A DNA stretch of 64,000 nucleotides from Yuukianura sp. NJ FZ-2021 (lineage: Eukaryota): the NCBI GenBank assembly GCA_046563655.1, contig CM102286.1, positions 7,130,001 to 7,194,000 of the forward strand, in the 5' to 3' direction. The notes under the pieces are model-generated. The model was given only the letters and a program-made list of their open reading frames with translations. It was not told the DNA's origin and did not search any database. The position numbers and the translations under genes are program-made. Numbering within the stretch: the stretch's first letter is position 1; each line of letters begins with the position of its first letter. Below, piece after piece: positions 336 through 63,194 of the stretch.

Positions 336-2229
336 TTATGCTGCCGGATGTTTGGATTTGGTGGCTATTGCCCATACTTCCATGATGAAGTTATCACTGA
401 ATCCGAAGGAACCCAATTCGGAATTGTCAAGAACCTCAGCAAAAGCCGTTACACTTTCTCTTCCGATTGTCATTTCCCATACTTGAGTGGCTGTGGAAAT
501 TAAAAATACATGAATCCTCTTTTCGAAGTGAGAAAAAGAGTTTAAAAGTTCAGCATTCAAAATTTACCTAAGTCTCCATCGCTGATTCCTACAAAATTTT
601 CTAGAAGGTTGTTAATATTGGAAATTGCAGCTTCGGAAGTGTTGTCAACCTGTGAAATACAGACCAGCATGAAAAAACTAATACATTTGAAAATACATTT
701 TTTGTTTATCTAAATTTCGAAACACGAAAGATTTCATAAAATGAAAATTATGTATTGACATTTCACTTACAATTTCTAATACAGGGGGTCCATTAGCACG
801 AAATCTAAGCGTTTCCTTTCCATTTCTAACATTTTCTGGAGTTGCAGCTTTTTGTTTTCTCGCTGCAGCTTTTGGCCCAATATTTGCTTTAGTAAAAGAA
901 AAAAAGACGTTAACAATTTTTGGGAAAAAAATTGAAGGTAAAGAGAAAGCATTACTAAATCCAGCACGTATTGGTTCTATTAGTCTCATCACAAACGTTT
1001 TTCCGATTGGAATATTTCTGAGGTATTTGGCAACTTCAATGTGTCTCCACCCAACCAGACTCTGATCGTCTATCCGCTCAATGTGGTCACCTACCTAACA
1101 AAGGACGACAGTTACAAAGACAAATTGAAAAAAAAAGTCACTCTCAATGGTTCCGGGGTTGACTCCATTTCCGGCTTATTTAAAAAAAAAAGAGAAACCA
1201 TGTCGAATTTGCAGCAACCGCCAAAAGTTCATTTTAGGACAAGTTGTTAAAACTTGTGTGGCTTTTTTTTTTTGTTAAAAAATGCCGTTCAGATGTAAAA
1301 GTAAAAATCATGTCGTTGAACTTGGACTAAAAGTTTGAATTGTTAATTTGTAAATGTTGTTTTGAGGCGAGGGAATGTTTGTGTTACATAGTATTCAAGT
1401 GTTTAAAATTGTCTCGCCTCAATGGCTCCCGCATTTTTGGCAATGCTCCCATCCTTGACCCGCTTAATAAATGAGTAGCCAGTACCATTGTCTGTTATGG
1501 TAAGACCTAACGCATCGCTAGTTTTAGTGATCTCCACTTCCTTTTTTGTTCCTGTAAACAAAGGATGTTAGTGAACCGTCTTAAAACAAAGATTACTGTT
1601 TCTATAATTGTAATCTGTTTAGTTGTTTTCACAAATGTTACAAATTACAAAAAATTTTCTTCGGAGTATTGTGGATGAGCGAACCTTTCATGTGAACAAA
1701 AATAAAGTCTTCTAAAGAAAGCTGGGCGCTAAGGAGCGCTGACATTTCGACGCGATGCGTGTTGAGTGTACAGTAAAGGATCTGAAATGTTCAACACACA
1801 AATATTGCTAAAAATTCTGCGAAACAATGTTTTTGCACAACTGGTTTCATTTTTGAAGTTGACATTCCCATAAAGTTAGGTGATATTTAAATGTTCACTT
1901 GCCTCTTCCACAGGGAACCCATAACATTCAGCAATTTTTCCATAGAGCTCCTTGACATTTGCAAATCCCGAAATTAGGCCGGTGGGACTACCATGGGCTT
2001 GCTGACAACGAAACACAAATTTTGGCTTACTTCCGGATGCGGCGGCTCTAACTGACGGGGACGGCACTACTTTCTCTTTGGGGTCGGACTGACTTTTGGC
2101 ACTTTTATTTGAATTCGACGCCACTGAACTTTTATTATTATTGGTTTCGCCATTTTTGCTTGAAATCGGATTTGAAATTCCTTGGGCGGGTGATTTGGCA
2201 GTTGATTTCGACGTAGAAAAACGTGGCAT
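336..2229 (-). CDS. GIPC: PDZ domain-containing protein GIPC (kermit-like), 7 exons
   Basis: Exons 2229-1903, 1781-1685, 1551-1418, 1094-956, 886-771, 649-568 and 490-336 join in frame. GH1 motif [58 protein letters not shown]...VGDHIE; GH2 [19 protein letters not shown]...[12 protein letters not shown]. Introns 1 and 3 need GC donors. Confidence 0.93.
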
Positions 2230-3009
2230 TTTGGACGACTATCACAACAGGAAAGGCTTCTTTCAAAAGCTTTACAGTTACACACCGACTAGTTCCGAAA
2301 ATACAATCGTGTTGATCACATATCAAAAGCTTTTACGTTATCACCACAACTGTCCTGAGTTGAAGCACCAATCGCTTTGAAATCTACTGTACATGGTAAC
2401 TAATCACCTCAGGATAAAGCCAAAATATCGCAAGCTGATTGATAGAAAAGCACACAATGCTTATGTTACGGGCTACAGCGACGATAATAAAAAATATTTT
2501 TGCACTATGGGGGACTCTTTGGAAGCCAAATGAAAGCCAGATCTGCTATGATGACAAACTGAATCACAATAAGCCGCTCAGGTATTTCCTATTCTTTTGC
2601 TGAATTGGTGTGGCGTAGACTTTACTATAAAGCTGCCATGTCCACGCTTTCCCGATATGCTTCAAATCCCCTAATTATGCCACTGCCAATTCCCACAAGC
2701 ACTCGCTCTGTTTTACCATGGACTAAACCCATTGAAGTTTATTATGTAATAAAACATGCACGTTACACTTATTCGTACACTTCCAATTTTATTTGAAGCA
2801 TGAAGAAAGAAAAACCTTTGAGAAAATTCAAGCGGATCCTGAGCTTAATTTCAAGGGAAAACATGCAATAATTTTAAGCGGTTAACTTTTTTTTTCTTGT
2901 CCCGGGAACCGGGAATAGGAAATTTAGTTCCCACCTACGTAAGTCGAGATGCAACTGATGCTGCTAGTAATTGTAATTCCTCCGACATTGGTTTTGGTGT
3001 GGCAGGTTT

Positions 3010-4077: not shown

Positions 4078-4989
4078 CTACTTCCGACCTCCGTATGTTG
4101 GAACCCAGCTTTGTTGCTGCTGGTAACTCGGTTTTACGGTAGGAGGTTGGTAGTAATTCTGTCGTGGCGGTGGTGCAATGGTAATCGACTGTTTTGGCGG
4201 TTGATACGGTGATACCGTTGGAGTCGGGTAATACGTCTGCTTCGGGGTTGGATAGTAAGTTTGCTTCGGTGGCTGGTACGGTTTCACGGTTGGAGTTGGG
4301 TAGTAAGTTTGCTTCGGTGGTTGATACGGTTTCACGGTTGGAGTCGGGTAGTATGTCTGCTTCGGGGTCGGGTAGTACTGGTTTCGTGGTGGTGCGATCG
4401 TAGGATACCCAGGAGTTGGATATTGTTTTTGTGGAGAAGCGGTTGGATAGTAGGACTGTGTTTGTTGAAAATTCTTATTACCTTGTTGGTAATTGGGCCT
4501 TGAGTTTTGGTTCTGATATCTTGGTGGTTGAATATACTTCGGCTGTTGTCGTGATTCTGCTCCCCGTTGGTTCTGCAATTGATTTCGATTTCCAGTACGA
4601 GACCCCTTTTCCGGTTCATATGAAACGGCGCAGACGCCCTCAAACTTGACCCTCAGATCTAAAAAAAATAATTCAGAATAAATTATTGAATTCTCTTTCA
4701 GAACATAAGTACACATTAAGTTAAATGAATGATGAGCAATAAAAATACGGTGGAAAACTTACTCGGGTTACCCCGTGTGACGGCACACTCCAGTTCGCAC
4801 TTGTTACTGTAAGTCTTGCCATCAGTTCTGAAGAAAATAGAAAATTTAGTTTCTCGAATACGACGAGTAATATTTGCTAATACTGGAAACTTACCCGCAG
4901 TATGGCTTGTAGTCCGCCGTACAGAAGCACGCATTAGCAGACACGCCAAACAGGACAACAGCTAAACCCACGATCTGTAGGGACATCAT
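4078..4989 (-). CDS. Secreted single-Kazal-domain protein with long Tyr/Pro/Thr repeat tail (paralog B)
   Basis: Same three-exon layout as paralog A. [48 protein letters not shown]...FEGVC. The last exon lies in ORF 4078-4716 and carries YYPTPTVKPYQPPKQT repeats. Confidence 0.9.
4187..4380 (-). repeat. Coding tandem repeat (48-bp unit, KQTYYPTPTVKPYQPP, with partial copies)
   Basis: Recurrent tagtaagtttgcttcggtgg / ggtttcacggttggagt on the + strand; peptide repeats visible in ORF 4078-4716. Confidence 0.85.
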
Positions 4990-5397: not shown

Positions 5398-7177
5398 TTA
5401 ATTTATAATCTTGAGTCCATTCCAGTAACCTGTTTTTTCCCAGTCCATTTTGTCTATCGCCTTCTGAAACCTCTTGACCCTGAGCTTCCTTTGCATTCTC
5501 TGCTTGACACGAGGCTCCACAATATTTCGTTTCTGGAGGCTGTTGAATCTGCAACAATATAAATCAAGCACGTACATAAAAATGGGCAACGGGAAATGGA
5601 TCTTCCTGGGTAACTAAGTTGTTTACCTTTCCAATGTCAAGCGGCTGCTATGTGCTGGAACTGCGACAAGACTGCCTTTAATTTCATCGCTGAGAGCTGG
5701 GTCAAGTGGGAGTTCTTCGTAATGGAATTTGCTGATTTTCTTCTGGCCAAACTTTTCTCTTTTAAGTTTCTTCTCCACAGCCTTTGCTAATCTTTCTTTT
5801 TGCTTCTTTTCGGTCTTTGTTATTGACTTCTGAATAGACTTGATTCGGAAAACATCATTCAACCTCGCATTTTCTTTCTTCTTCTCCCGAAGAAGCCGAA
5901 GTTTTTCTTTCTCCTCTCGTTCTTTCCTCTTCTGTTGTCTGGTGACAAAAATTATGATAATAATTCGGTAACTGTTCACTCGCAGCAGGGTGCTTTGTTT
6001 ATAAATTATAATAGTAGTTTCAGAACTTACTTTGTTTTGGCTTTGCTTTGGGGAAGATTTGGTTTTTTGTCTTCGATAATTCCATGCTGCTCTTCGTCAT
6101 CTTGTTCAGAATCAGGCTCCTCTTTGTCCACACTGAAAGATGAAGAAAAGACAACTGACTAAAAATTTTGTTTCAAGGAAGTTTGAAATACCGAAACCCA
6201 CGTATGATAAATGGTGGGAGCAATGCTTTTGTCGAGGCGTTGTTCTCTCTTGATGCTGGAACTAACGTCAGCTACAGCAGTCTTCAACAATGCTTGATGA
6301 TCCTTGAAAGAAGGATTGTAGGAAAACCCTGGATGTGGCACTTCAATTGCGGGCAACTCCGAGGTGACGTTTGGCTTCGGCTTTCGAATCTTTTGTCGGA
6401 GATTGTGCCGTTTGATGGTAGGGTTGATCCATTCGGAATCCAGAATTGCTAAAAGCATTAATTTCCAACTTAATCAGTAATTATAAAATATGTGCCCTAG
6501 TAGAATCGAACTGAATGAAATCGACTCACTTTTGGGATCCTCCATGGACCATGGATCTTTACAGTTTTCTGTTTCTGGTGGGATGTCCACTTTCTTCTTG
6601 GCTTGTCGTGCTGTATCCTTTACAGCCATCGTGGCGGTTTTCCCATGGCCAGGCTTCTTTATAGGATTCCTTTGCAAATTAAAAGAAAACACATGTTGAT
6701 GCAACATTCAAGCAGAGGTTCTTTTGGGTAAAATACCTTTTGACGATGGGGTCTCGTACTGCAGTATGTGGCTTTAGAAGGCGGAAGCACTTTAAATCTT
6801 CAGTATTGACAAGTGGTCCAGTCTTACTGCGTGTCGCTTTAGCTATAGGGGCAGTTTCCAAATCATTGTCTTTAAAGTCGCTGCTGAAGGAACCTAAGTC
6901 GTCTAGTGCAAATAGTTCTTCATTAGGTTTAGACCGTATGCCACCGTGTCGTTCATCCGTTCGCACGTCGTCCATAAACTGGTCCACATCTCCATGCTTG
7001 ATTTGTTTCCATGATTTCTTTTTGTTCTTTCCCTGTTTTTGTTTCTGCGCTCCTGGATAATAAACATGAACTTAACATATAGGGTAACCGCACCGTAAAA
7101 TAAATATTTAATCCGAAGAGTGAATAACTTAGCCCAATGACAATGAGACTGAACAACTTACCTCTTAATTTGGCCAT
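5398..7177 (-). CDS. NOP53: Ribosome biogenesis protein NOP53 (GLTSCR2/PICT1)
   Basis: Spliced MAKLRG-AQKQKQGKNKKKSWKQIKHGDVDQFMDDVRTDERHGG...NEELFALD; PAIEVPHPGFSYNPSFKDHQALL; EIKGSLVAVPAHSSRLTLERFNSLQKRNIVEPR. These are characteristic NOP53 motifs across ORFs 6679-6987, 6159-6458, 5623-5979 and 5398-5589. Confidence 0.93.
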
Positions 7178-8861: not shown

Positions 8862-12122
<3,261 letters not shown>

Positions 12123-12379: not shown

Positions 12380-12859
12380 TCAATAACCTCTGTTGGAAAG
12401 TGTTTTCAAAATGACAGAAATCAATCCCAAACCGATGGCGACAGTGTTAGGTGTTATACCGGCAGAAGAACTATTATCCAAAAAAAAAATGAGAATATGT
12501 AATTTGAAAAAAAAAATAAGTATGAAAAAAATACTATTTTTTAAAGATGCTTTAGCAAGTTACCACATCACGATCTCCTTATTCCCACAGACACAGAAAT
12601 CGGCAGCTTTATTCCTTGGTGTGGACTTCACACAAGAAATTTTCGGAAATCCCTTTTCGTTGCAATATGCTTTGCACTTGTCACAATTAGCAAAACATTC
12701 TAAATGAGTAAAGTTTGTTAGCTAAATATTTCAGAACAAGTGTTCAGCTGAATCTTATATAAAAAGTTTTCATTGAAACTTACTTTCCTCTTCTTTGGAA
12801 TGAACAATGGAAATCAATAGAACAGTCAAAAGAATAATTGGCAAAACAATTTTAGCCAT
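12380..12859 (-). CDS. 100-aa secreted 8-cysteine CS-alpha/beta (defensin/drosomycin-like) peptide with putative GPI-anchor signal
   Basis: Exons 12859-12784, 12699-12564 and 12470-12380 (GT-AG, 303 nt, in frame): MAKIVLPIILLTVLLISIVHSKEEEK CFANCDKCKAYCNEKGFPKISCVKSTPRNKAADFCVCGNKEIVMC SSAGITPNTVAIGLGLISVILKTLSNRGY*. Confidence 0.8.
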
Positions 12860-13468
12860 TTTGCTTTTAGCTGTGCTCAGTTTACTGAAAAAAAAATTAT
12901 AGCCTTCCGCTCCAGGAAATAAAGGTTGAAATTGTAGTAAGAGGTGAATGTTTGAAGTAGAATGTACTGAAAAGACACTTTGGTTGAGAAGTAAGTTATC
13001 GATAACAAAGTTTAAGTACGACAAATTTAACCCAGTCCTTGCAGGAAAATATAAGCCACCACCACATCAGCATCCTGTGACACGCAGGAACTTAAAGTTT
13101 GGGATTAGTCATTTTCTGGGCAAAAGGATGTGTGACTTTTTATCATTAAAAAAACATTTTTGGAAAATTCGTAACTTTTGTTTCAGAAGGATTTGCGTAT
13201 TCTACTTTTATGTTTCCCACACGCCTCACTCACAGTAGACAGATCAAGCGAAATTTCTATGTTTTTATGTATTTATTTATTTCAACCCTCGAAATGACTT
13301 AGAAACAATTGATATTGAGGCCCCAAAGGGAGTTTGCTAGTTCGTATAAATTAAAAAACTCACATCATTTCACGACCAATTACATTAGTAATTACAAAAT
13401 TACAAATTAAAAAACGCTTTTTACAGTCAACCTGTCGAATTCCTTAATGTTGATTTCATCCTCCAGCT

Positions 13469-16400
13469 TCATTCGTCATGAGTTGGAAGAACATTGTAGA
13501 AATCATTCTCGGTTTCTTCTAAAATTCCGGTGAAAGGGGGGCTAATGGGGGTCCCATTGGTGATGTCCGACTCCTCAACGGTTTCCTTTTCCATTTCTTC
13601 TTCGGTGTCGTCTCCTTCACGAGTTGACGAAGACATTTCTTCCGAACCAAACTCGACTTCCTCCTCCTCATTTTCATTTTCGTCCTCCTCCTCCTCCTCT
13701 TCATTTTCGTTTTCACCTTCCTCCTCTTCTTCATTTTCGTTTTCATCTTCATCCTCCTCTTCATCTTTGTTTTCATCCTCCTCCTCTTCGTCGTCTTCTT
13801 CAGTTTCCCGCGGCGTGTTCTTATCTGACTCGGCACTTTTGTTTTCTCCATGTAATAATTGCTGCGTTTCCTGACGATCTTCTACATCCGGACGTTGGAA
13901 CACGTCTTTGTTTTCATAAATATATGAAAATTCAGTTTCTCCCGAAGTTTTTTGCACTGCAGAAACGACAATTCCAGGCAGCAATTAATATTTGGAATTA
14001 AAAAAATCACCGCTAAAGCAACAATACCTTGGTTGTATTCATCCAAACAGATGTCGTCGTCTTCAGCTGTACATAGCGGCGACTCTTCCTGAAGTTTATT
14101 TTTGAAATATATATCCAATTGCATAGCGACTTCCAATCTTTGGTCCATTGGTATCCTTTCGTGTTTGAGCTTTTCAAATGCGTCCTTGAAGTATCTCCAC
14201 TCGTCCCGACCTTTCCATCTTTTTACAATTTCTTTCATTGCATCTCGTGTAGGATGTTCCTCAGTGATTTTAGCCAACTCGTTCAAATCATCAGTGAACT
14301 CATCTCTGTCAAGGTAGAGGGGTCCATGCACATCTTCCGGCAGAACATGTTCGATAAAGAATTTGGCAGTGATGTTCTAAAATTTTGAAAATTGATTTTA
14401 AACCGGTAGTGTAATTTGTAAAATCTTTGAATTTGATCTCTTACTTTCACCATTTCTCGTTGCAGAAAACCATCAAAGTCTTCAGGCGGCGCGTCGCTGC
14501 CACCACTCAACTGTTCAGATGGTGGTTTCTCGTGGACTTCTGATTTGTTTGAGACTCTGGGCAACTCGAGTTGGGAACCATGCTGGTCCTCTTCTAACAT
14601 GGACAATGCTTCCGATCGAAGTCGTCTAGGAGAAGACTCTGTCGATGATGCTTCCGAACGTTCGTAGCGCCACTGGATAGCTTCTTTTACTACTGATATT
14701 TGAGGAACTTGGTAGAAGTTTGGTAGAAAAAGAGGCAAATCGGCTTCTCGCAGTGCTTCTCCTAAAATTGAGAATCTTCAATTTTAAAAAATGTAAAAAA
14801 AAAATTAAGCTGGTAACTCAATCAAATGGTTTACCTCTTGTAGTAATTAATGACACGAAATTGTCTCTTGTGATGCTATACTCGTAATGGTTATCCGGTT
14901 CTCCCAAAATTTCAAAGGCTCTGAAAATATCTTCTTCGTGGACGCCAGCGTCTCTGTGATTGACATACAGCATCACAAAGTCGTCAAACGTGATTTCAGT
15001 TTGTTTCTTCCCATATTTTTGTCCTAGGATAAATTCCACTTCTTCGGAAAGCATATCGATCTGTAAGAAATTATTTTGAGCTGAAAAAGTCTATTCAAAA
15101 ATTAGTTCATTGCCACAGTTCGTTGCCAGTTTTTATTAAAAATTGAAGTTGTAATGTAAAACCAAGCCTTTAAAAATTATTGAAAAATTATACCTCCAGT
15201 TCAGATGGAAAGTGGCCCATTGTCCTCATGACAGTGGTGATATCAGCCAGTGGAATTGATAATGGCATTTGGAGAAGTTCGTCATGATTTGGCGCTCTTT
15301 TCAACATGAAATGGTAAAATATGTTTTTGATGTCATCAACAATGCTCAAATGTTGAGGAAGACCGGCATCCAAGTAACGTTCAAATGGAACAACTCCCAA
15401 TCCTCCCGCCATTGAATGATTTTCGAGAATTCTAGCCAGGAAAAATTTAAATTTAAAAACCACCAACAAAACTTAAGTTATCAACAACGCTTACCGCACA
15501 TCAGGAATCCACATGAAAATGCATCTGTCAGACTCAGCTCGCGTAAAAAACTCAGAGCCATTCTTGCCAATGCCCACGTCTTGAATCTGGTATTAAGAAA
15601 AAACTAGTAAGTTTTACAAGCATTGTGCAGTTAAGGTTTAAGTCATTTGCCTCAGTAGGGTGCCCGACTGCTGCCATGTACTTGAATGGGTTTCCATCAA
15701 TCGGTGTTTTCATGAGGCCAATTTTATTTCCGAGTGTAATTAGAGCGTACCTCGTGTTACGATCTCCCCTTCCCACAGCAGAAATTGGCTGAAAATGAAA
15801 AGCATTAAAGATTTTTTTAAGTCTGAAACTTTCTTTCTGCTTTTTGTAAGTTTTGCGTTTGAAAATATTTTAAATTAGTTTGCAAAAACCGTAAAAAAAT
15901 TGGGAGAAAATGGCTTAGATTTTGTCCTCGGAAATTCTAAAATTGGAGTTGGAATGTCCAAATTCATCTTGTTTCTAGTCCTATCAAAATTCGTTAACCT
16001 AAACGATATTTTGACAAATATCTTTATCTTATGTGATTTCGAGAATTTCGTTTCACTATTTCTGAAACTTTTACACAAGACAATTTATATTTGAATTGCA
16101 AGGTATTTACCACCATATTTTTCAACGGTGCCCCGAATTCTGGGCCCTGGCACGTTTTTCTGATCTTCAAAGCATCTTGGTCAAACATCCGAATTTTGTT
16201 CTAAACCGTACAAACCATGTTTTATTAAACATGTTTACATTGGCAATATCATATATCGGGCTTACGTTGGTTGTCGAATAGAGTAAAATAGGTCCATGAT
16301 CTCGAAACGGAGCATCAAACGCCATTACAGTCGGAATGGCGAATTGTTCAACTGACGTCACCGACAAAATTTTAAGCCCCTTGGTTGGATTGCTTAAATC

Positions 16401-29000: not shown

Positions 29001-32000
29001 CTTTTAATATCGATTTAAGCTATCACGGATTCTCCCGCTTATGAAAAAAACTAAATCCGTGAAAACCAAAATTAGGAAAATCGGAAATAATGAGACGATA
29101 TTAACTTTCATAATGCTGAAATGACTTCCTGAGGAGATGCAAAGGGCGGTTAGGCTAGGATTAGGTTACGGTTAGGTTTATTGGTCCAAGAATGTTATAG
29201 CAGGAGGCAGAAAGTGAGTGGAGGAGTGAAAGGTGAGGACTGTTGATTATTGGAAGGTGTTAATGGGATAAGTGGGATGATCGGGGATTGTGATTACTCC
29301 ATCCCATACAAAGTCCCAGATTATAATCACCCAACAACAAACGCCATGTGCTTTTCAGAATCACATTTTATACACACATTTGCACTGATTACTCCCCACC
29401 ACACTTATTTCCCTCCTAAATGTCTAATTACTACTAAACCGCCCTTCCATGTGTACGTACACACATGCACTTGTAGACTCTTAACATGTCTAATCATACA
29501 AGTTCGGTGTGTCTCAAAATGACATGACACTTGATGATACCCATTCATTATTTACATCGTCTCAATTGCCGTGTCCCTCCTTTGCATTCTTACGCAACGC
29601 CAATTTAAAAACAGGCGACTTAAAATTTTAATTTCGATTCGAGCTGTACAAAACACGGTGTGTAAAATTTAATGAAATTTGCGTCAATATTTTCATTCTG
29701 ATTTGACAAAATTTGTAAACATAAATTTAATAGACCAATTTGGGATTCAAAATTTAAAATAATTTTTAAACTTAGTTTATGAAATTGGTAAGTCTTTTGG
29801 AAATTTGGAAATCTTAAAAATTTTAGAATGTAAATCTGCTCGGTTTGTGGGATTGGTGATGAATTGTGAATGACCTTCCAAAAGTGCATCAAAATTTTAA
29901 AGGATGAAATGCATTTTGAACCAATGCTTGATTAAAATTTAAGTTCAAAACAAGTTTGCTACTTTTAGCAAATCATTGTCTGCGGTGACTTTTAGTGCAA
30001 ACCAAAACTACGTACTTGTCCAGTGGAAGGTTGTGTCAAGTTGAGGCTAAAGTGTGATAAGTTATCACTGGTGTCTAAACCATTGCTTACTCAATTGAAA
30101 GTGTAGTTAGTGATAAGTGTGGTTACTTACAGCGCCTTGTTGCCCGGTGTTTGGCGTTGACATTGTTCTACCCCATCCTCGCCGTGTCTGTCAATTTGGT
30201 TGCTATAGCTGTGTAGGATGCAGTGGCGGGAAATGCTTTCTCTGGCTTCAAATTGCTTTCTCTCGAGAGTCGTGCCTTGGGAAGAAGCGGAGCCGATTCG
30301 TGTGTGCTGAGAGCTCAACCAACGTCCGTGTGCAGAGTGAACCTTCCATGGGAGTCCAATGCAGTTTTCCCTAAGTTGGGAACATAGGCGAGGGCAAACA
30401 CAGTCGAATCCCCTCTACACTAACTTAGACTCTACACAGGACTTGGTTAGGTTGCCACAGAGAAGGAGAGCTATGAACGCGCACAGCCCACCAACCAAAC
30501 CGGAGTTGGCTACCCCTCCCCTATGCCCACTGACTCAACATACCCAAGGCACTGGCCACTCGCGAACTTCTCAAGTTTCATGACATAGCATTGACCTCTG
30601 TCCTGGAAAGCACTGCTCAATTCCCCGAATTCTGTTCGAACCCGCCGATGTGACCTTCAACTCATCCGAAATGGTCGGCTTTCTCCTGAACGAAGCTTTT
30701 GGCTTGAAAGATTCGGAAAGAGTTGAACTTTTTTTTCAGCTTTTGCTGATGAAGTAGATGATCAAAGCGGTTTTCCCGAAGCAGCGCCCTTTTCTCCTCT
30801 CGGAGAAACTTCAGAATATGAAGATGGCTACTGCACTTATTGTCTGCGGTTGATTCTGTGATTTGGAAATTGCAATCACAATATTTCCAAATATTTAAAC
30901 CACATATCTGAATTAACTACCGATCCCAACACTGTCATCGGTCATAATATGAACATCCGACTGACGAAGAAGTATTGGTTTAAAAATATAATAGTAGTTA
31001 ATGTTATTGTTCCAAACAGAACTGGCGTCTGGTGGTGTTCCGGAGCAGTTTGTGCTCTATTTATATAGTGGTATATTTATGTTACTGTACACATCTATTT
31101 GACAAGTTTAAACCTTCAATTTTTGTATTTTATCTTTAAATTTAGAAATATTAAGTTAAGGCGTGTAATTGAAAATCATACTAAAATGATCAAGTGTTTA
31201 GAAATTTCCTTGAACTTTTGTTTCTTTTTTAAACAAATTTTGCTTAAATATTTGAGTTACAAATTTTGTGAATTGAGGTTCAATTTTGTTTTTATTTGAA
31301 GAAAGGAGTTTTGCATTGTATTAGGTTAATTTCCATTAATGGAATACCGTCAGAATTATAATTACTGTCTATGTTAAACTAAATTATATAACGTTTTTTA
31401 GTCATATAAAATTTATAATTTGATCATTCAAAATACAATGTAATCAAAATACGATATAATCAAGTAGCGAAGTTATGAAATTGAGCTTTGATAAAAACTG
31501 AGATTTTGGAACTTTTAGTTTTGATTTGGTAGCTGTTCATACCAAAACAAAAAATACACTATATTCTTGTAAATGTCGCACTTTTGGACATCAAATGAAT
31601 TCATCCAAGAGGTGGCGTCCATGTCGATGACCCAAATGTTTCAACCGCTGTAACTGTAAGGTGGTTGGCGAAAAAGAAATCAGAAGTCGATACTGTGAGA
31701 GAAGCCCGTAGAGGCAGTTCCTTTGGTTTTGGAATGACGGGCAGAATGACAACAAAGACTGACTTTAGTTAGTAGTTTTTTTTATAAAGTAATGTCTCAT
31801 GTATTATAACATCTTCATAACACAAAATTTTGTCTGTTTTACTTTGGAGCACCGTAAATTCCAATAGAACGAAAACGAATGTTTCAAAAGCGTTTTGCAG
31901 AGCGTTTCATTATGGTAAACCCACTCAATCAGTGTAGAGCGAATGTTGCAACATGTTTGAACGAAGAAATGTCCAGCATAGAAACAGAAGATTGTGTAGT

Positions 32001-32598: not shown

Positions 32599-33397
32599 GG
32601 GTCCATGCCATTACATCAAAACAAAGACATAAGCAGCAAAGACATCAGCACCAAACACATAAGCAAGAAAGACATAAGCAATGCAAACACATAAGCAACC
32701 GAAATACATCAGCACAAAACACATCAGCAAAAAAGACATAAGCAAGGCAAACACATAAGCACCGCAAACACATCAGCACGAAACACATAAGCAGGAAAGA
32801 CATCAGCAGTACAATTACATAAGCAACATAATTACATAAGCAGATCAAATTGCTCCGGAATTAAATTAAATTGCATTATGGCGTTTAGAGCTCCTTCATA
32901 TGCTAACCACACCTAACCTAATGATTTACAGCTTAACCTGACGTAATCTTTCAATTGCTAGCCTTTGCCTAACCTAACCGATCGAATTTTAACAGAACCT
33001 GCTAAACACTACTATATACTACTTAACCTAACGCATAATTTTAACTTTCACGTTAAATTTAACTTACCTGCTAGAAAAAATTTTAACCTGCTAACTACAT
33101 TAAAGAATACGTCAGTGCAATTCAATTGAATATGGTCGGAGGAATTTGTGGTCTGCTTATGTAATTATGTTGCTTACGTAATTATACTGCTTATGTCTTT
33201 CCTGCTTATGTGTTTTGTGCTGATGTGTTAGCGGTGCTTATGTGTTTCCCTTGCTTATGCCTTTTTTGCTGATGTGTTTGGTGCTGATGTGTTTGCGGTG
33301 CTTATGTGTTTCCCTTGCTTATGTCTTTCTTGCTTATGTGTTTGGTGCTGATGTCTTTTCTGCTTATGTCTTTTTTTTGATGTAATGGCGTGCTTCG
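32599..33397. mobile_element. Non-autonomous foldback DNA transposon (long modular inverted repeats), 8-bp TSD
   Basis: Left arm (about 32599-32880) and right arm (about 33115-33397) are reverse complements built from 15-17-bp acacataagca/acatcagca units. Termini gggtccatgccattacatc / gatgtaatggcgtgcttcg. Direct repeat AATCAAAG at 32591-32598 and 33398-33405. The spacer is rich in taacct. Confidence 0.88.
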
Positions 33398-45800: not shown

Positions 45801-48800
45801 AAAGACGGTTACTGCCGAAAGCCTGGACCCAGACTGACACCACTTCACATTCAACATGGCGGAAGTCCTCTCACTCGTCCTTAAGCGAACAGCCCAGAAG
45901 CACAAACTGGCGAAAATCCTACGGGACGTAAGTAGCACGGATTCTCCACCTACTCAGTTTGAACTCCACAAACTGCTGGATCAAACTGAAAAGATCGAAG
46001 GTACTGTCCAATCCATTCAAAATGAAATCCTAACGTATATGTCTAATGAGGATGATTTAATGCCTCAACTTGAAGCTTCAGAACAGATTGATGACATGAT
46101 TGTTAAGATCCATGGTCTTATCAATGGAGAGTTAGCGAAGCTGGACTCCAACACCCAGAGTGGATCCACCCTAACCTCCGCTCCGTCAGTCGTTCATCCA
46201 TCGTCTAAGGTCAAGTTACCTAAGCTTGACCTTCCTACTTTCTCTGGCAGTTACGAAGACTGGCCATCCTTCCGAGACCAATTCGAGGCTTCCATCGTCA
46301 ACAATGGCAGTTTGTCTGGTTGCGAAAAGCTGCAGTATCTAAAGTCATCTCTCAAGGACGATGCACTAAAGATAGTCTCGCCATTCGTAATCACTAATGC
46401 TAATTTTCAGGATGCTTGGGATTTGTGTATCGAGCGATACAACAACACGCGCGAGATCGCATTTTCATTGTTGCGAAAATTATTTAATCTTTCTAAACTC
46501 TTTCAGGAAAACGCGACTTCACTGAGGAACCTGGTTGACACTTTCGACCAGTGCGTGAGACAGTTACGGAACCTTAACCGTAACGTTGACCAATGGGACG
46601 ATGTTCTGGTCTTTACCATAATGGAAAAGTTGGACCCTGACACCAAGAGGGAATTCGCCATCCAACTATCAGGAACGAACGTTCCTACGTACAAAGAGGT
46701 CAAAGACTTCCTTGAGCAACATATCCGTGGTCTCCAGAGCATCTCATCAGCGTCAACAAAACAACCTCAGAAGTCCGTTGACCGTAAGAAGGTCCATGCA
46801 GTGAACACTGCAAAATGCGTTCTTTGCTCAGAGCCACACCCACTATTCAAATGTGGGAAGTTCAATGCCATGACCATTGCTCAACGGATGGACACAGCCA
46901 AAGCTCAGCATCGATGTTTCAATTGTCTCGGTCTTGCTCATACTCCCAAGAACTGTCATTCCAAGTCTCGCTGTCGTGTGTGTCAAAAGCCACATCACAC
47001 TCTTTTGCATATCAACAATGAAGTCGTTCCTTTCACAAACCAGGTAACCAATCCTAATGCTCATTTGACTAATCCTTCTACTTCTGTTCCCACAGCCAGT
47101 TGTAATCACAACTCCGGCTATGGAGTCCTCCTTGGAACGGCAGAAGTCTACGTAATGGATGCTACTGGAGCCTACCAAACCTGCCGTGTCCTTCTGGATC
47201 CAGGAGCTGAGGTTTCCTTTAGCACCGATCGGTGCTGTCAGCGACTTGGTCTCTCACAGACAAAGTCCAACGTCACCATCAACGGAGTTGGTGCTACTAC
47301 AGTTGGTAAAGCAAAGGGAAAAACCATGTTGCAAATCAAATCTAAATGTAATGATTTTACGTTGTCGGTGGAAGCTCTTGTTCTCTCCCAGGTCACAGGT
47401 CAACTGCCCTCCTTTAGGTGCGGTGACACCTGGAAAGAATGGACCCACCTTCAGAATCTGACCTTGGCTGACCCCAGATACATTGACCCGAGGGAAGTTG
47501 ACATTCTACTTGGGGCTGAGGTCACACACAGAATCTTCACTGGTCAGACTCTTTCTTCTCGGGTTGATCAACCCGCTGCTTGCTCGAGCCACTTCGGATG
47601 GGTGGTCATGGGACCAGTCCATACTCCACCAGTGCAGTCATACACGGCCCACTGCCACACCGTCTCTCTGGATGGAGCCATCCAACGCTTGTGGGAACTC
47701 GATCACGTCCCAACTCGGATGCAGTTGACACAAGAGGAGAGTGACGCAGAGAACCACTTTACAACTCATCACTCTCGTACACAGGATGGAAGATACATTG
47801 TTCCACTTCCATTCAAACCCAACATTTCGGAACTCGGATCATCACGATCAATCGCATTACGGAGGCTCCACCACACTGAACGTCGGCTGGATCGACTCCC
47901 GCAACACAAAAGTGAGTACGTAAAGTTCATAAATGATTATCTCAATTTAGGTCACATGGAACAAGTCCCACCATCGGAAGAAGGAGAACAATTCAAGGAT
48001 GGATCCATCCAGACGTACTACCTCCCACATCACTTCGTTTTGAAGGAGGATAGTACAACAACCAAACTTCGTGTGGTTTTTGATGGTTCGTGTGAATCCA
48101 ATTCAGGTTTGTCACTGAATAAGTGCCTAATGGTAGGGCCAACTATTCAACCTGATTTGTTTACGCATCTAATCAAATTCCGATTGGATCCAATCGTCTT
48201 AAAGGCTGACATAACAAAAATGTATCGCCAGTTCTCAGTTTTAGAATCAGACTCCAACTTCCAGCGGATCCTGTGGCGGCCAACTCCTGATCAGCCTATT
48301 CGGGAGTACAGGCTAAAAACAATTACGTATGGAACCTCTTCGGCTCCATTCGGTGCCATTCGGGCCCTCAATCAACTTGCCATGGACGAAGGAGACCACT
48401 TTCCCTTGGCCAGGCAAGCAATAATTGAACGATTTTACGTAGATGATTATCTAGGTGGTGACTCATCAGTTCCAAAAGTGGTGGAAACGTACCACCAATT
48501 AACCAAACTACTCGCTCGTGGACAACTGTCAATCACAAAGTGGACTTCAAACTCTCCGGAAGTCCTACAGGAGATTCCTTCACACCTAGTGGAGATCTCC
48601 ACTCAATCACTGGCGGAGGGATCAAGCACCAAGGCATTGGGCGTTCAATGGACTCCAAATTCTGATCTCCTCCATTTCACTGGATTTAGGTTTGACCAAA
48701 CCTCGGTAATAACAAAACGTACCATTTTAAGTGACATCGCAAAGTTATTTGATCCATTGGGGCTACTCGCTCCATTCGTCGTGTCGGTAAAAGTTTTCTT

Positions 48801-51800
48801 TCAGAGTCTTTGGACCTTGGGCATTGGTTGGGATGATAACCTGCCCGAGGACTTGGTAGAAAGGTGGACCCACCTTGGCTCATCACTGTCATGTCTTAGT
48901 GACATTGCCATTCCACGTTGTGTGATTGTACCAAATTACCAGCGAATGGAATTACATGGATTTTCGGATGCCTCCGAAAGAGCCTATTGTGCCGTGGTCT
49001 ACCTCCGAACTTTTAACAACGATCTACCAACATCACGAATTCTAACTTCCAAGACTAAAGTAGCGCCTGTCAAGGCACAGAGCATACCGAGGCTCGAACT
49101 TTGTGGTGCTTTATTATTATCGAAACTAATCTCTTTTCTTTTATCTAGTTTGGATCCAAACTGTCATGTCTACTGTTGGACTGACAGTGAAATCACTTTG
49201 CGGTGGATCTCGTCTTCTTCTCGTCGCTGGGTCCCATTCGTGGCCAATCGGGTTTCGCAAATCCAAGAGCTCACACCAGTCGAATCTTGGCATTTCATCC
49301 CTGGGACACTCAACCCTGCCGATTGCGGAACAAGAGGGATCCCTCTTAATGAGCTCGTGGATAATCAGCTCTGGTGGAACGGACCGGACTTTCTGTCAGA
49401 ACCACAATTACCTTCGTTCTCCAGTTCACAAACAGTCTCATCTGAGCATCTGAAGGAAGAACGTAAGGTCAAGGTCCTAACTATTCAAATGTCTTTTCCC
49501 ATTCTGAACAGGTACTCATCATTTCTGCAACTCCTTCGTGTCATCGGGTCACTTCTCGGGTTTATGCTGAGAGCTCAGCAGAAGTCGGCACCGACGGCAC
49601 GCTCAGTCGAGTTCTACCGAATGGCCACTCGGAAGGTCATTCAACTGTCACAACAGGAATACTTCCAGGAAGAAATCCAGTCTCTGACAAAAAAGGGTAA
49701 AGTCAGTCAATCCAGTTCGTTGCTCTCTCTTTCCCCATTTTTGGATTCGGATGGATCTCTTCGTGTCGGTGGTCGGCTCCACCTGGCATCGCTCCCAGAA
49801 GCTGCCAAACACCCTCTGATCATACACGGAAAGTCCTCAGTGACTAAACTACTCGTCCAGCATTACCACCACAAGCATCATCATGCTGGGAATCGTCTTC
49901 TGCTCTCACTTCTACGCCAAGACTATTGGATTGTCCACGCACGAGATTTGATCAAATCTGTCATCTCTCGCTGCCTCAGATGTAAGCTGTTGAGACAAAA
50001 GACGGCAACACAACTCATGGGTACACTGCCTCAACCAAGAGTCACGATGTCACCTACGTTTCATCACACTGGTTTGGACTACGCTGGTCCATTTACACTC
50101 CAATCTGTCAAAGGACGAGGCCAGAAACAATTCAAAGGCTACTTCTGCATTTTCATCTGCCTCTCTACGAAAGCCGTTCATGTGGAATTCGGAACCGAAC
50201 TCTCAACCGAATCCTTCCTCGGGACTTTCAAACGGTTTGTATCACGTCGGGGTAACCCACTACATTTGTATTCTGATTGTGGTACCAATTTTGTAGGTGC
50301 TAACAACGAGTTGATGGATTTGGTGAACTCTCACCAGTTCAACTCGGAAGTTTCTTCTTACTTTGCAGAGTCACAAACCCACTGGCATTTTAACCCTCCG
50401 TCTGCTCCTCATCATGGTGGAATCTGGGAGGCAGCAGTACGTTCTGTCAAATTTCATTTGAAGAGGATCATTGGGAGCACCACTTTAACGCTTGAGGAAT
50501 TTGCTACAATTCTTTGCCAAGCGGAAGCAGCGCTAAACTCCCGACCTCTTCAACCGATGTCCAGTGACACATCCGACTTAGGTGTGATCACACCTGGCCA
50601 CTTCCTCGTCGGCAGACCTCTCCTCGCCGCTCCTCAACCAGATCATGCTGATGTCAAGGTCAATCGCCTCTCACGTTGGCAGTTGCAGGAGAAGCTATTC
50701 CAAACGTTCTGGAAGGTCTGGTCGCTTGAATACCTCACATCACTTCAACAACGAGTCAAGTGGACCAAGAAAACCAACAACTTGACAATCGGAGACCTTG
50801 TGGCCATCAAAGATGACAATTTACCTCCGCTAAAATGGAAGCTGGCTCGTGTCATCAACGTCCATCCTGGTCCAGACGGACTAGTCAGAGTCGTCACTCT
50901 TCGTACTGCCCTCGGAGAACTCCAACGTCCCATCGTCAAAATTGTCCCACTTCTATCTAACGACGAGCTCTCTTCAACTTAAGTTCGTATTTTACTTCAT
51001 TTTTAATTCATTTTAATTTTAATTTATCTTAATTTTAAGGCTATGCTAGGTTAAGTCATCTTTTCATTTAGTTAAGATCTTAACTTTTTAGTTTTAAGGT
51101 TTTCACAACATTTAATTTGTAATTTTAAGTTTAACTGATCGATTTATCAACCAGCATGTCAAAGAGTTTCCCACACATTTGTAAGCGGTTTGCTGAGGCC
51201 CTTTGGTTAGAGTCGCTTGAGCTGTAGGAGGTCATGCAAATTGGGTCTCCTTTTAGTTTTGACGGAGGACGAGGGTGACGTTTCGCACTGCCCGAATGAC
51301 CCATCCGACCTACAGTAAGAGTGATTTTGGCCGAGGACTTAGTAGTCCTTACTAATGTATAACGTATTCTTCCGACACGATCGTGTCAGGGGTGGCGGCA
51401 TGTTGGCGGGTAAACCGACGGTTCATAATCTTAGGCTAATTCTAGTTTACATTTCTCATGCATTTCAATTCTTAGAATAAGGTATTAGGTTATTTTTACT
51501 TTAGTGGCAGGCAGTAGAAACACTCGTTTCTTCCCTTCTAAACATCTAACTTACACACACTAATTTACATTGTGTTCTCATTCTGGTGTTTTCTTTACAT
51601 TACTAAGGATTAGGAATACTCATTCCTCCCTTTACAATTCAATTCGCTTCGTAGTTTATAAATACTAGTGACACACAGTCACTCAGAGTTCAGTCTACTT
51701 TCAGCTTTGTAACCGTCTTCTTTTTCCTATTCTAAACATTCAATAAACAAAATAACGTAAATCTCGATGTCTTGATCTCTCTGTGGCTTCACCACAAGTC

Positions 51801-62634: not shown

Positions 62635-63194
62635 ATGGCGGCGAGGACCAAGTACACTGGAGGTTGTCATTGTGGGAAAGTAAGATTTGAAGTATTTGCC
62701 GGAAGTAAAGTTGTTGTATACGATTGCAAGTAAGGATGAAATTATATTTTACGTATTTTGGATTGACACTTTTGGGTATATAAAACTCAATCAATATTGT
62801 TCAGTTGTTCAATTTGTACGAAGAAACAGAACAGACACTTCATTGTTCCAGCCCAAGATTTTAAGTTGCTTCAAGGTCATACGGATTTGACAACCTACAC
62901 TTTCGGAACACACCAAGCGAAGCATATGTTCTGTTCCAAATGCGGTGTACAAAGCTTCTACATACCGAGATCAAATCCAGAGGGTTATGGTGAGTTCATA
63001 ATGCTTCACTTTCACTACAATAAAGTAGTAAATGTCAAATGGCAAATACAATGGTTTACATTTTTATTAATACAGGAATTATGCCGCATTGCATTGATTC
63101 TCCACAACCGACAATATTCCAAATTGAAGAATTCGATGGGGAGAACTGGGAAGAGTCAATCGCAAAGCACCATAATCTGAAGCTTAGTGTTTAA
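62635..63194 (+). CDS. CENPV: Centromere protein V (GFA family), 3 exons
   Basis: MAARTKYTGGCHCGKVRFEV...DCN|CSICTKKQNRHFIVP...YTFGTHQAKHMFCSKCGVQSFYIPRSNPEGYG|IMPHCID...FDGENWE. Confidence 0.93.

Follow-up and report, generated by a model that had tools for sequence, protein, structure and literature searches.

A probable orphan gene for a secreted defensin-like peptide in the genome of Yuukianura sp. NJ FZ-2021

A stretch of 64,000 nucleotides (nt) from the genome of Yuukianura sp. NJ FZ-2021 (assembly GCA_046563655.1, contig CM102286.1, positions 7,130,001 to 7,194,000), referred to here as the window, carries on its minus strand a small, unannotated gene that is probably real and restricted to its lineage, and that would encode a secreted peptide of the defensin-like kind. 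An exon for a signal-peptide-like segment is followed by a short intron and by a second exon with seven cysteines, the translation of which is predicted to fold around a cysteine-stabilised alpha/beta (CS-alpha/beta) core. A candidate third exon would supply an eighth cysteine and a hydrophobic C-terminal tail. With the cysteine formed at the junction to that exon included, the mature core would comprise approximately 50 residues with a net charge of about +2.7 and an isoelectric point of about 8.5.

Gene structure

The anatomy of the gene was read directly from the window sequence, and as all of its features lie on the minus strand, their coordinates run from high to low. The coding part of exon 1 (12859-12784) opens with an ATG at 12859-12857, in the context CAAAATG, and reads MAKIVLPIILLTVLLISIVHSKEEE plus one base. 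It specifies a signal-peptide-like segment of 21 residues and then KEEE, the remaining base opening a codon that is completed in exon 2. The hydrophobic h-region of this segment has a Kyte-Doolittle (KD) hydropathy of 3.3 and, on inspection, V-H-S conforms to the small/neutral pattern at positions -3 and -1; cleavage of the signal peptide would thus be predicted after ...VHS. Intron 1 (12783-12700; 84 nt, GC content 0.26) is a phase-1 intron of the GT-AG type (GTAAGT...TTTAG) with the borders AAA/GTAAGTTT ... CTCATTTAG/AA.

Exon 2 (12699-12564, GC content 0.40) holds the cysteine-rich core. Its complete codons translate to CFANCDKCKAYCNEKGFPKISCVKSTPRNKAADFCVCGNKEIVM, and it ends in phase 2 with TG, after which the sequence continues GTAACT. 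The seven cysteines are spaced by 3, 2, 3, 9, 12 and 1 residues, the CxxxC motif reading CKAYC and the CxC motif CVC. The glycine of the usual GxC motif is missing, the corresponding residues being ISC. A preliminary description of this DNA had proposed a signal-peptide exon, a seven-cysteine exon and this cysteine spacing, and had remarked on the missing glycine; all of these were found in the sequence as described.

Comparison with chance expectation

Taken by itself, the cysteine-richness of exon 2 is within chance expectation, which counts against a gene. Stop-free stretches of 45 codons with at least seven cysteines occur four times in the window, compared with a mean of 1.18 and a maximum of 4 in 60 Markov simulations, so that such stretches arise by chance about once per window. 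Methionine starts followed by a signal-peptide-like segment are a different matter: the window contains 13 of them, whereas 40 simulations gave 1.55 on average. The start at 12859 has the highest hydropathy of the 13 (3.34). It sits 160 nt 5' of the cysteine-rich frame on the same strand, and a consensus donor (GTAAGT) and a phase-compatible acceptor lie between the two. It is this combination, i.e., the best signal-like start, a consensus intron and an in-frame, confidently folding cysteine-rich open reading frame (ORF) containing CxxxC...CxC, that exceeds chance. As a rough estimate, taken from the simulated densities and not from a formal test, such a juxtaposition is expected about 1e-3 times per window.

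The scan for cysteine-rich frames also returned two adjoining cysteine- and valine-rich frames at 32638-32860 on the minus strand, with repeated CLCVC...AYVF units. These look more like a short tandem DNA repeat than a gene.

An antisense ORF of 106 residues (12387-12707, plus strand) spans candidate exon 3, intron 2 and exon 2 and was considered as the coding strand of the locus. It was rejected, as it matched no family at E < 0.1 (best Pfam E value 0.17), and it is probably a by-product of the composition of the strand that codes for the peptide.

Predicted fold

The translation of exon 2 was modelled with AlphaFold2 in a single-sequence run, without an alignment. The best model reached a mean predicted local distance difference test score (pLDDT) of 79.0, the five models ranging from 72 to 79, and the elements appear in the order helix (residues 5-15) and three strands (20-23, 34-37 and 40-43). 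CKAYC falls within the predicted helix, CVC within strand 34-37 and a lone cysteine within strand 20-23, so that the model displays the helical CxxxC and the strand-borne CxC by which the CS-alpha/beta superfamily is recognised. The positions for a third bond are also occupied, by two cysteines 5' of CxxxC and by the one in strand 20-23, although the latter stands in ISC instead of GxC.

Structural neighbours of the model were sought with VIA-align among 48,161 PDB representatives. The top match was mytilin (2eem; Z 3.7, root-mean-square deviation 2.1 A over 33 of 34 residues, 18% identity), and a second VIA search of the PDB again placed mytilin first. Scorpion defensin 5xa6 (Z 2.9), LURE1.2 (5yah; Z 2.7) and pine defensin 7lns (Z 2.5) were also found, making four CS-alpha/beta entries with mytilin among the 50 matches shown. 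The protein language model Atlas gave exon 2 a recognition value of 2479, above its mark of 2300, and the neighbours listed for it all belong to Toxin_5, Toxin_3, Toxin_2 or Gamma-thionin, with scores of 0.75-0.79. A control ORF with seven cysteines, taken as a chance frame (30117-30251, plus strand), reached a pLDDT of 55.9 and an Atlas recognition value of 1331 with no usable match.

Several of these statistics weigh against the proposed fold. The VIA-align search returned 184 chains at Z of at least 2 and none at Z of at least 5, and unrelated folds in the same list reach Z values of 2.4-3.5; structural Z values of this size lie in the noise range for small domains. Foldseek found no match to the model in the PDB at E <= 0.001. 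The Atlas scores remain below the level of 0.9 and thus provide a lead only, and the fold control consists of a single ORF. The CS-alpha/beta fold claimed in the preliminary description accordingly stands as a prediction: the placement of CxxxC and CxC, the pLDDT, the leading position of mytilin and the Atlas families speak for it, while the Foldseek result and the low Z values do not. A CS-alpha/beta-like core is nevertheless the best-supported fold for exon 2 in these models, weak as the structural statistics are.

Relationship to known families

The CS-alpha/beta superfamily has been framed by a reference array of ten cysteines, in which CxxxC and CxC provide cysteines 3, 4, 8 and 9 (PMC5116183). 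The peptide is predicted to share with this superfamily the CxxxC helix, the CxC strand, a cysteine in the strand before it and, N-terminal of CxxxC, one or two further cysteines. It also shares a cationic character, a signal peptide and a phase-1 intron ahead of the mature exon. In arthropod and mollusc CS-alpha/beta defensin genes, the mature exon is unsplit and flanked by a strictly phase-1 intron (PMC6435467). This layout is found here, with intron 1 in phase 1 and all six canonical cysteines within exon 2; the three-exon model would split the codon of the last cysteine alone. The phase of intron 1 therefore supports the defensin reading, and it also favours a plain two-exon gene.

The peptide differs from the superfamily in the lack of a Pfam profile match and of the GxC glycine, in an additional cysteine three residues 5' of the first and in a possible hydrophobic C-terminal extension. 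The loop before CxC is long, at 12 residues compared with 4-9 in the scorpion pattern and 7 in springtail defensins, while the distance from CxxxC to the next cysteine is 9 residues compared with 9-10 in springtail defensins (PMC6435467 and PMC10051947). The springtail defensins found by homology have six cysteines and were reported from Sminthurus viridis only, one of five species surveyed (PMC10051947).

Mytilin is the closest structural neighbour of the model in both VIA searches. It has eight cysteines, several of them along one face of the helix, and its precursor of approximately 100 residues combines a signal peptide, a core and a C-terminal extension. Mytilin genes have four exons and encode precursors of about 101 residues with an anionic C-terminal extension, and the cysteine array is C-X3-C-X3-C-X4-C-X11-C-X-C-X-C-X2-C (PMC7168163), as opposed to gaps of 3, 2, 3, 9, 12, 1 and 7 residues here. 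The extension of the present peptide would be hydrophobic and slightly basic (+1.5). Membership in the mytilin family was rejected because the cysteine array is a different one and the extension carries a different charge; mytilin is moreover a protein from another phylum, and any likeness is one of structure, with homology not demonstrated.

The preliminary description had likened the peptide to drosomycin, a comparison that found no support. Under the three-exon model, the peptide would share with drosomycin and plant defensins a total of eight cysteines with an extra pair at the domain termini, the C1-C10 type of the reference array. In contrast, the model has no strand before the helix, the first three cysteines are 3 and 2 residues apart, the last cysteine follows CxC by 7 residues, and no PDB sequence matched at E <= 10. 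The drosomycin/plant-defensin type was rejected, since the beta-alpha-beta-beta order is not present for lack of an N-terminal strand and C10 would be gained through candidate exon 3 alone.

The candidate third exon

Downstream of exon 2, a candidate intron 2 (12563-12471; 93 nt, phase 2) with the borders GTG/GTAACT ... T10-GGATAATAG/TT would lead to a candidate exon 3, the coding part of which extends over 12470-12380 and closes with a TGA stop at 12382-12380. The TG left over from exon 2 and the first T would form a cysteine codon, followed by SSAGITPNTVAIGLGLISVILKTLSNRGY and the stop, giving a tail of 29 residues. The three pieces join in frame over GT-AG borders into 303 nt, or 100 codons, and the cysteine spacing of the product would be 3, 2, 3, 9, 12, 1 and 7.

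Base composition and reading frame argue for this third exon. Candidate intron 2 has a GC content of 0.18 (T content 0.52) and candidate exon 3 one of 0.41, the change occurring precisely at the T10...AG site; in the 3' flank the value is 0.25. The frame beyond it is open for 30 codons and encodes residues rich in G, A, P, T, V and S, whereas the alternative acceptors yield translations rich in F, I, K, L and N. Exon 3 would bring the cysteines to an even number, and the extra strand predicted at 40-43 stops where the eighth cysteine would stand.

The length of candidate intron 2 is in keeping with its surroundings. An intron verified by homology is available in a SERTA-domain gene (22274-20309, minus strand), which consists of two large exons separated by 109 nt (21407-21299; borders AAT/GTAAGTCC ... 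TTAACAG/CAA). Its best relatives belong to two springtails, Orchesella dallaii and Folsomia candida (44% identity), and all three matches carry SERTA, which by itself makes a springtail or an allied basal hexapod the most likely source of the window. Taken together with the 84 nt of intron 1, this indicates that short, AT-rich introns of 84-109 nt are the local norm, a class into which the 93 nt of candidate intron 2 fall. No homologue was found for a WD40 gene in the window, which hence provided no further reference introns.

A number of observations weigh against the use of exon 3. The preliminary description had taken the eighth cysteine formed across the junction as support for its model, but this support is weak: among the 23 AG acceptors 3' of the exon-2 donor, 16 would yield a cysteine, three a tryptophan and four a stop. 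Compared with the donor of intron 1, the donor itself (GTAACT) is weak, and a stop codon follows it directly. Canonical defensin genes keep the mature exon whole, and CS-alpha/beta peptides with seven cysteines are on record, mytilin C being listed as one in PMC5116183. Codon usage did not help to decide. A log-odds score derived from 17 long ORFs in the window had no power, as exon 2 scored like the noncoding null, and the score of exon 3 (-2.25, compared with a null mean of -2.75, standard deviation 3.84) was equalled or exceeded by 44% of null windows. On the sequence features listed, exon 3 is a slightly favoured candidate, and we put the chance of its being used at about even.

The strongest alternative is a gene of two exons that ends at the TAA overlapping the supposed donor. 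It would encode a precursor of 71 residues and a soluble peptide with seven cysteines terminating in ...EIVMW, and what is read above as exon 3 would be 3' untranslated region. Such a gene would show the canonical defensin layout, in which a single phase-1 intron accompanies a mature exon that is not split, and a candidate polyadenylation signal can be found by inspection in an ATTAAA at 12281-12276, some 100 nt past the exon-3 stop, although this signal would suit two exons and three equally well. The difficulties of this alternative are the odd number of cysteines, which leaves one free thiol, and the very features that argue for exon 3, i.e., the sharp GC step, the long open frame of non-junk composition and the end of the predicted strand at the would-be cysteine. 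We regard the two-exon gene as a serious contender whose probability stays short of even. The same short product would result if intron 2 were present in the gene and remained unspliced: as the preliminary description correctly stated, the sequence then reads TGG TAA, i.e., ...IVMW and an immediate stop.

The C-terminal extension

If exon 3 is used, the last cysteine would be followed by SSAG, the spacer ITPNT, the hydrophobic stretch VAIGLGLISVIL and finally KTLSNRGY. The KD hydropathy of this tail is 2.52 over 13 residues and 1.73 over 19, and its charge is +1.5, with K and R among the eight polar and basic residues at the end. The hydrophobic tail reported in the preliminary description is thus present after SSAG and a spacer, but it had been ended at ...SVIL, and the eight polar residues KTLSNRGY had been overlooked.

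Such a tail could belong to a three-exon precursor in one of two ways that do not involve a glycosylphosphatidylinositol (GPI) anchor. It could be a C-terminal propeptide that is cleaved off, as happens in mytilins and in plant defensins of class II. Alternatively, it could stay uncleaved and anchor the protein weakly by a single pass, leaving a short, basic end in the cytoplasm. Stop-transfer tails on the cytoplasmic side typically show basic residues behind the hydrophobic core, and the K and R found here fit the positive-inside rule. The tripartite layout of approximately 100 residues also matches that of the four-exon mytilin precursors (PMC7168163). However, mytilin extensions are anionic and this tail is basic and hydrophobic, there is no dibasic cleavage site, and a hydrophobic core of 13 residues is short for a plasma-membrane helix. 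As the proposal also depends on candidate exon 3, we consider it possible and rather unlikely.

Searches for homologues

Searches with exon 2 or the conceptual product returned nothing that could be called a relative, and these negative results count against a functional gene. With exon 2 as the query, neither Pfam (0 families) nor the sequences of the PDB (0 chains) gave a match at E <= 10, and a word-indexed search of longer proteins gave none. When 1.84 billion cluster representatives were searched exhaustively with HMMER, two matches appeared at E <= 0.001, both of them unrelated repeat proteins. A tblastn search of the conceptual product against the window, a check for paralogues that the preliminary description had proposed, likewise found no paralogue. 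A literature string search with three short motifs of the peptide yielded no occurrence. As an identical stretch of 44 residues would have been easily detectable, the gene must be missing from the public protein sets searched.

A search of metagenomes gave 313 pattern matches, of which a single locus was confirmed by tblastn. It was rejected as a chance match, as it lies in a bacterial-type flavin adenine dinucleotide (FAD) oxidoreductase ORF of 404 residues and has no more in common with the peptide than a word resembling KAYCNEKG.

The locus could, on this evidence, be no functional gene at all, consisting of chance open frames or a decaying or unexpressed relic, or it could encode a secreted cysteine-rich peptide of some other fold and role. 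The lack of any homologue, paralogue or family match in the databases and window searched would be explained, as would the frequency of cysteine-rich stretches and the modest structural Z values discussed above. The joint occurrence of signal start, donor, acceptor and CxxxC...CxC frame speaks against it, as does the fact that exon 2, in contrast to the control ORF, looks like a protein to both AlphaFold and Atlas. We consider this explanation improbable, and a lineage-restricted gene for a secreted peptide remains the preferred reading of the locus.

Membrane anchoring

The preliminary description had gone further and proposed a GPI-anchored CS-alpha/beta protein of three exons, in which the transamidase cuts at SSAG and leaves the domain on the outer leaflet, where it would act as a surface antimicrobial or a channel modulator. 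GPI signals have been described as hydrophobic C-terminal ends that are removed by the transamidase (PMC8331152). Several features of the precursor agree with the proposed anchor, among them the presence of a signal peptide at its N-terminal end and, by inspection, small residues for the omega region (S-S-A-G, directly after the last cysteine) with the short spacer ITPNT ahead of the hydrophobic stretch. A KD value of 1.73 over 19 residues is marginal for a membrane helix, and hydrophobicity of this order is more in line with a GPI signal than with a helix that spans the membrane stably. The architecture would moreover be viable, as an engineered GPI-tethered honeybee defensin (Def1) was functional in flies (bioRxiv 10.1101/2025.07.17.665347).

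On the other hand, a polar end of eight residues with K and R after a hydrophobic core of 12-13 residues makes for an atypical GPI signal. Literature phrase searches found no natural GPI- or membrane-anchored defensin; the matches were engineered tethered toxins and peptides, and in one further paper a signal peptide had been mistaken for a transmembrane helix. Plant LTPG lipid-transfer proteins, Ly6/uPAR proteins and engineered tethered toxins or defensins offer the nearest parallels, as they combine a signal peptide, a compact cysteine-rich domain, small residues directly behind the last cysteine and a hydrophobic C-terminal segment. The folds of LTPG (an eight-cysteine-motif lipid-transfer protein) and of Ly6 (three-finger) differ from that of the peptide. 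Their anchors have been shown experimentally, LTPG1 serving as a GPI reporter (PMC8331152), in contrast to the present putative tail, which ends in eight polar and basic residues. The analogy to Ly6 prototoxins drawn in the preliminary description is pure inference.

Even granting that exon 3 is real, the tail is unlikely to be a GPI signal, though it may be. Less likely still is a membrane-tethered CS-alpha/beta protein, anchored by GPI or by its tail, in which the retention of intron 2 would switch between a tethered form with eight cysteines and a soluble form with seven. The GPI-anchored protein as proposed, which depends on candidate exon 3 as well as on the atypical signal, is the least probable of the explanations, and we consider it very unlikely.

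Genomic neighbourhood

The peptide gene lies between the 3' ends of two other genes, one on the plus strand (stop at 12122) and one for an acidic protein on the minus strand (stop at 13469). The acidic-protein gene, which is located upstream of the peptide gene, has an AATAAA near 13280, and this leaves about 400 nt for a separate promoter. By inspection, a TATA-like element (TATAAT, 12901-12896, minus strand) lies approximately 40 nt 5' of the ATG of the peptide gene. The palindrome TATCGATA, which reads the same on both strands, was found at 12997-13004, approximately 140 nt 5' of the same ATG; we take it to match the insect DRE core-promoter element. The kappa-B-like motif, for which we assumed the consensus GGGRNNYYYY, does not occur in 12860-13470, and in the whole window it occurs 20 times compared with 45 expected. 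Given this lack of a motif upstream, there is no hint of immune-inducible regulation.

Part of the upstream neighbour (13469-13984, minus strand) was found to be extremely acidic, forming an end of low complexity rich in Glu and Asp with sub-threshold Pfam matches only. On the same strand, an ORF at 4078-4758 is rich in Pro, Tyr, Thr and Gln and contains repeated YYPTPKQTYYPTPTVKPYQPPKQT-like units with no Pfam match. Signal-peptide-like starts at 4989 and 4986 (minus strand) are located just 5' of this ORF, which may encode a secreted structural protein of the cuticle- or eggshell-like kind. A single uninterrupted ORF of 1714 residues (45838-50982, plus strand) belongs to a long terminal repeat (LTR) retrotransposon of the BEL/Pao type and includes DUF1759, Peptidase_A17 (E value 1e-50), integrase zinc-binding and DUF5641 domains; from its sequence, the element looks intact and is possibly active. 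The remaining features include ordinary metazoan gene fragments with a GIPC GH1 domain (678-2238, minus strand), Nop53 (6679-7071, minus strand) and a GFA (glutathione-dependent formaldehyde-activating enzyme-like) domain (62767-63180, plus strand).

Proposed function and significance

If the gene is expressed as modelled, exon 1 would supply a cleavable signal peptide and exon 2 a small, cationic CS-alpha/beta core resembling defensins and mytilin. We infer that the peptide would enter the endoplasmic reticulum and fold there with three to four disulfides, the CxxxC of the helix bonding to the CxC of the strand and the cysteine at the N-terminal end of the helix to that of the first strand. 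It would then be exported as a host-defence effector, antimicrobial or antifungal. Exon 3, if spliced on, would add the eighth cysteine as a partner for the otherwise odd N-terminal cysteine, together with the marginally hydrophobic extension of 29 residues, which would keep the precursor at the membrane until removed. Its nature may be that of a GPI signal, of a propeptide that is cleaved off or of a weak membrane anchor.

Should a tethered form exist, nature would have its own version of the tethered toxins and defensins that have so far been engineered. Such a form could act on epithelia as an antimicrobial bound to the surface, or it could modulate the animal's own channels or receptors. 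If exon 3 is real, this would furthermore be the first natural defensin-fold domain with a membrane-anchoring tail found in the literature phrase searches, and it would bear on the question of how a single scaffold can give rise both to effectors that are soluble and to modulators that are tethered to the membrane.

At present, the locus is best regarded as a plausible candidate for a small orphan gene. Springtails inhabit microbe-dense soil, yet the homology survey cited above reported defensins in just one of five species (PMC10051947). The gene described here was undetected by Pfam and among 1.84 billion representatives, and was recognisable only by its cysteine frame, its gene layout and its predicted fold. 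Homology methods may hence miss part of the defensin-fold repertoire in basal hexapods and put its size too low.

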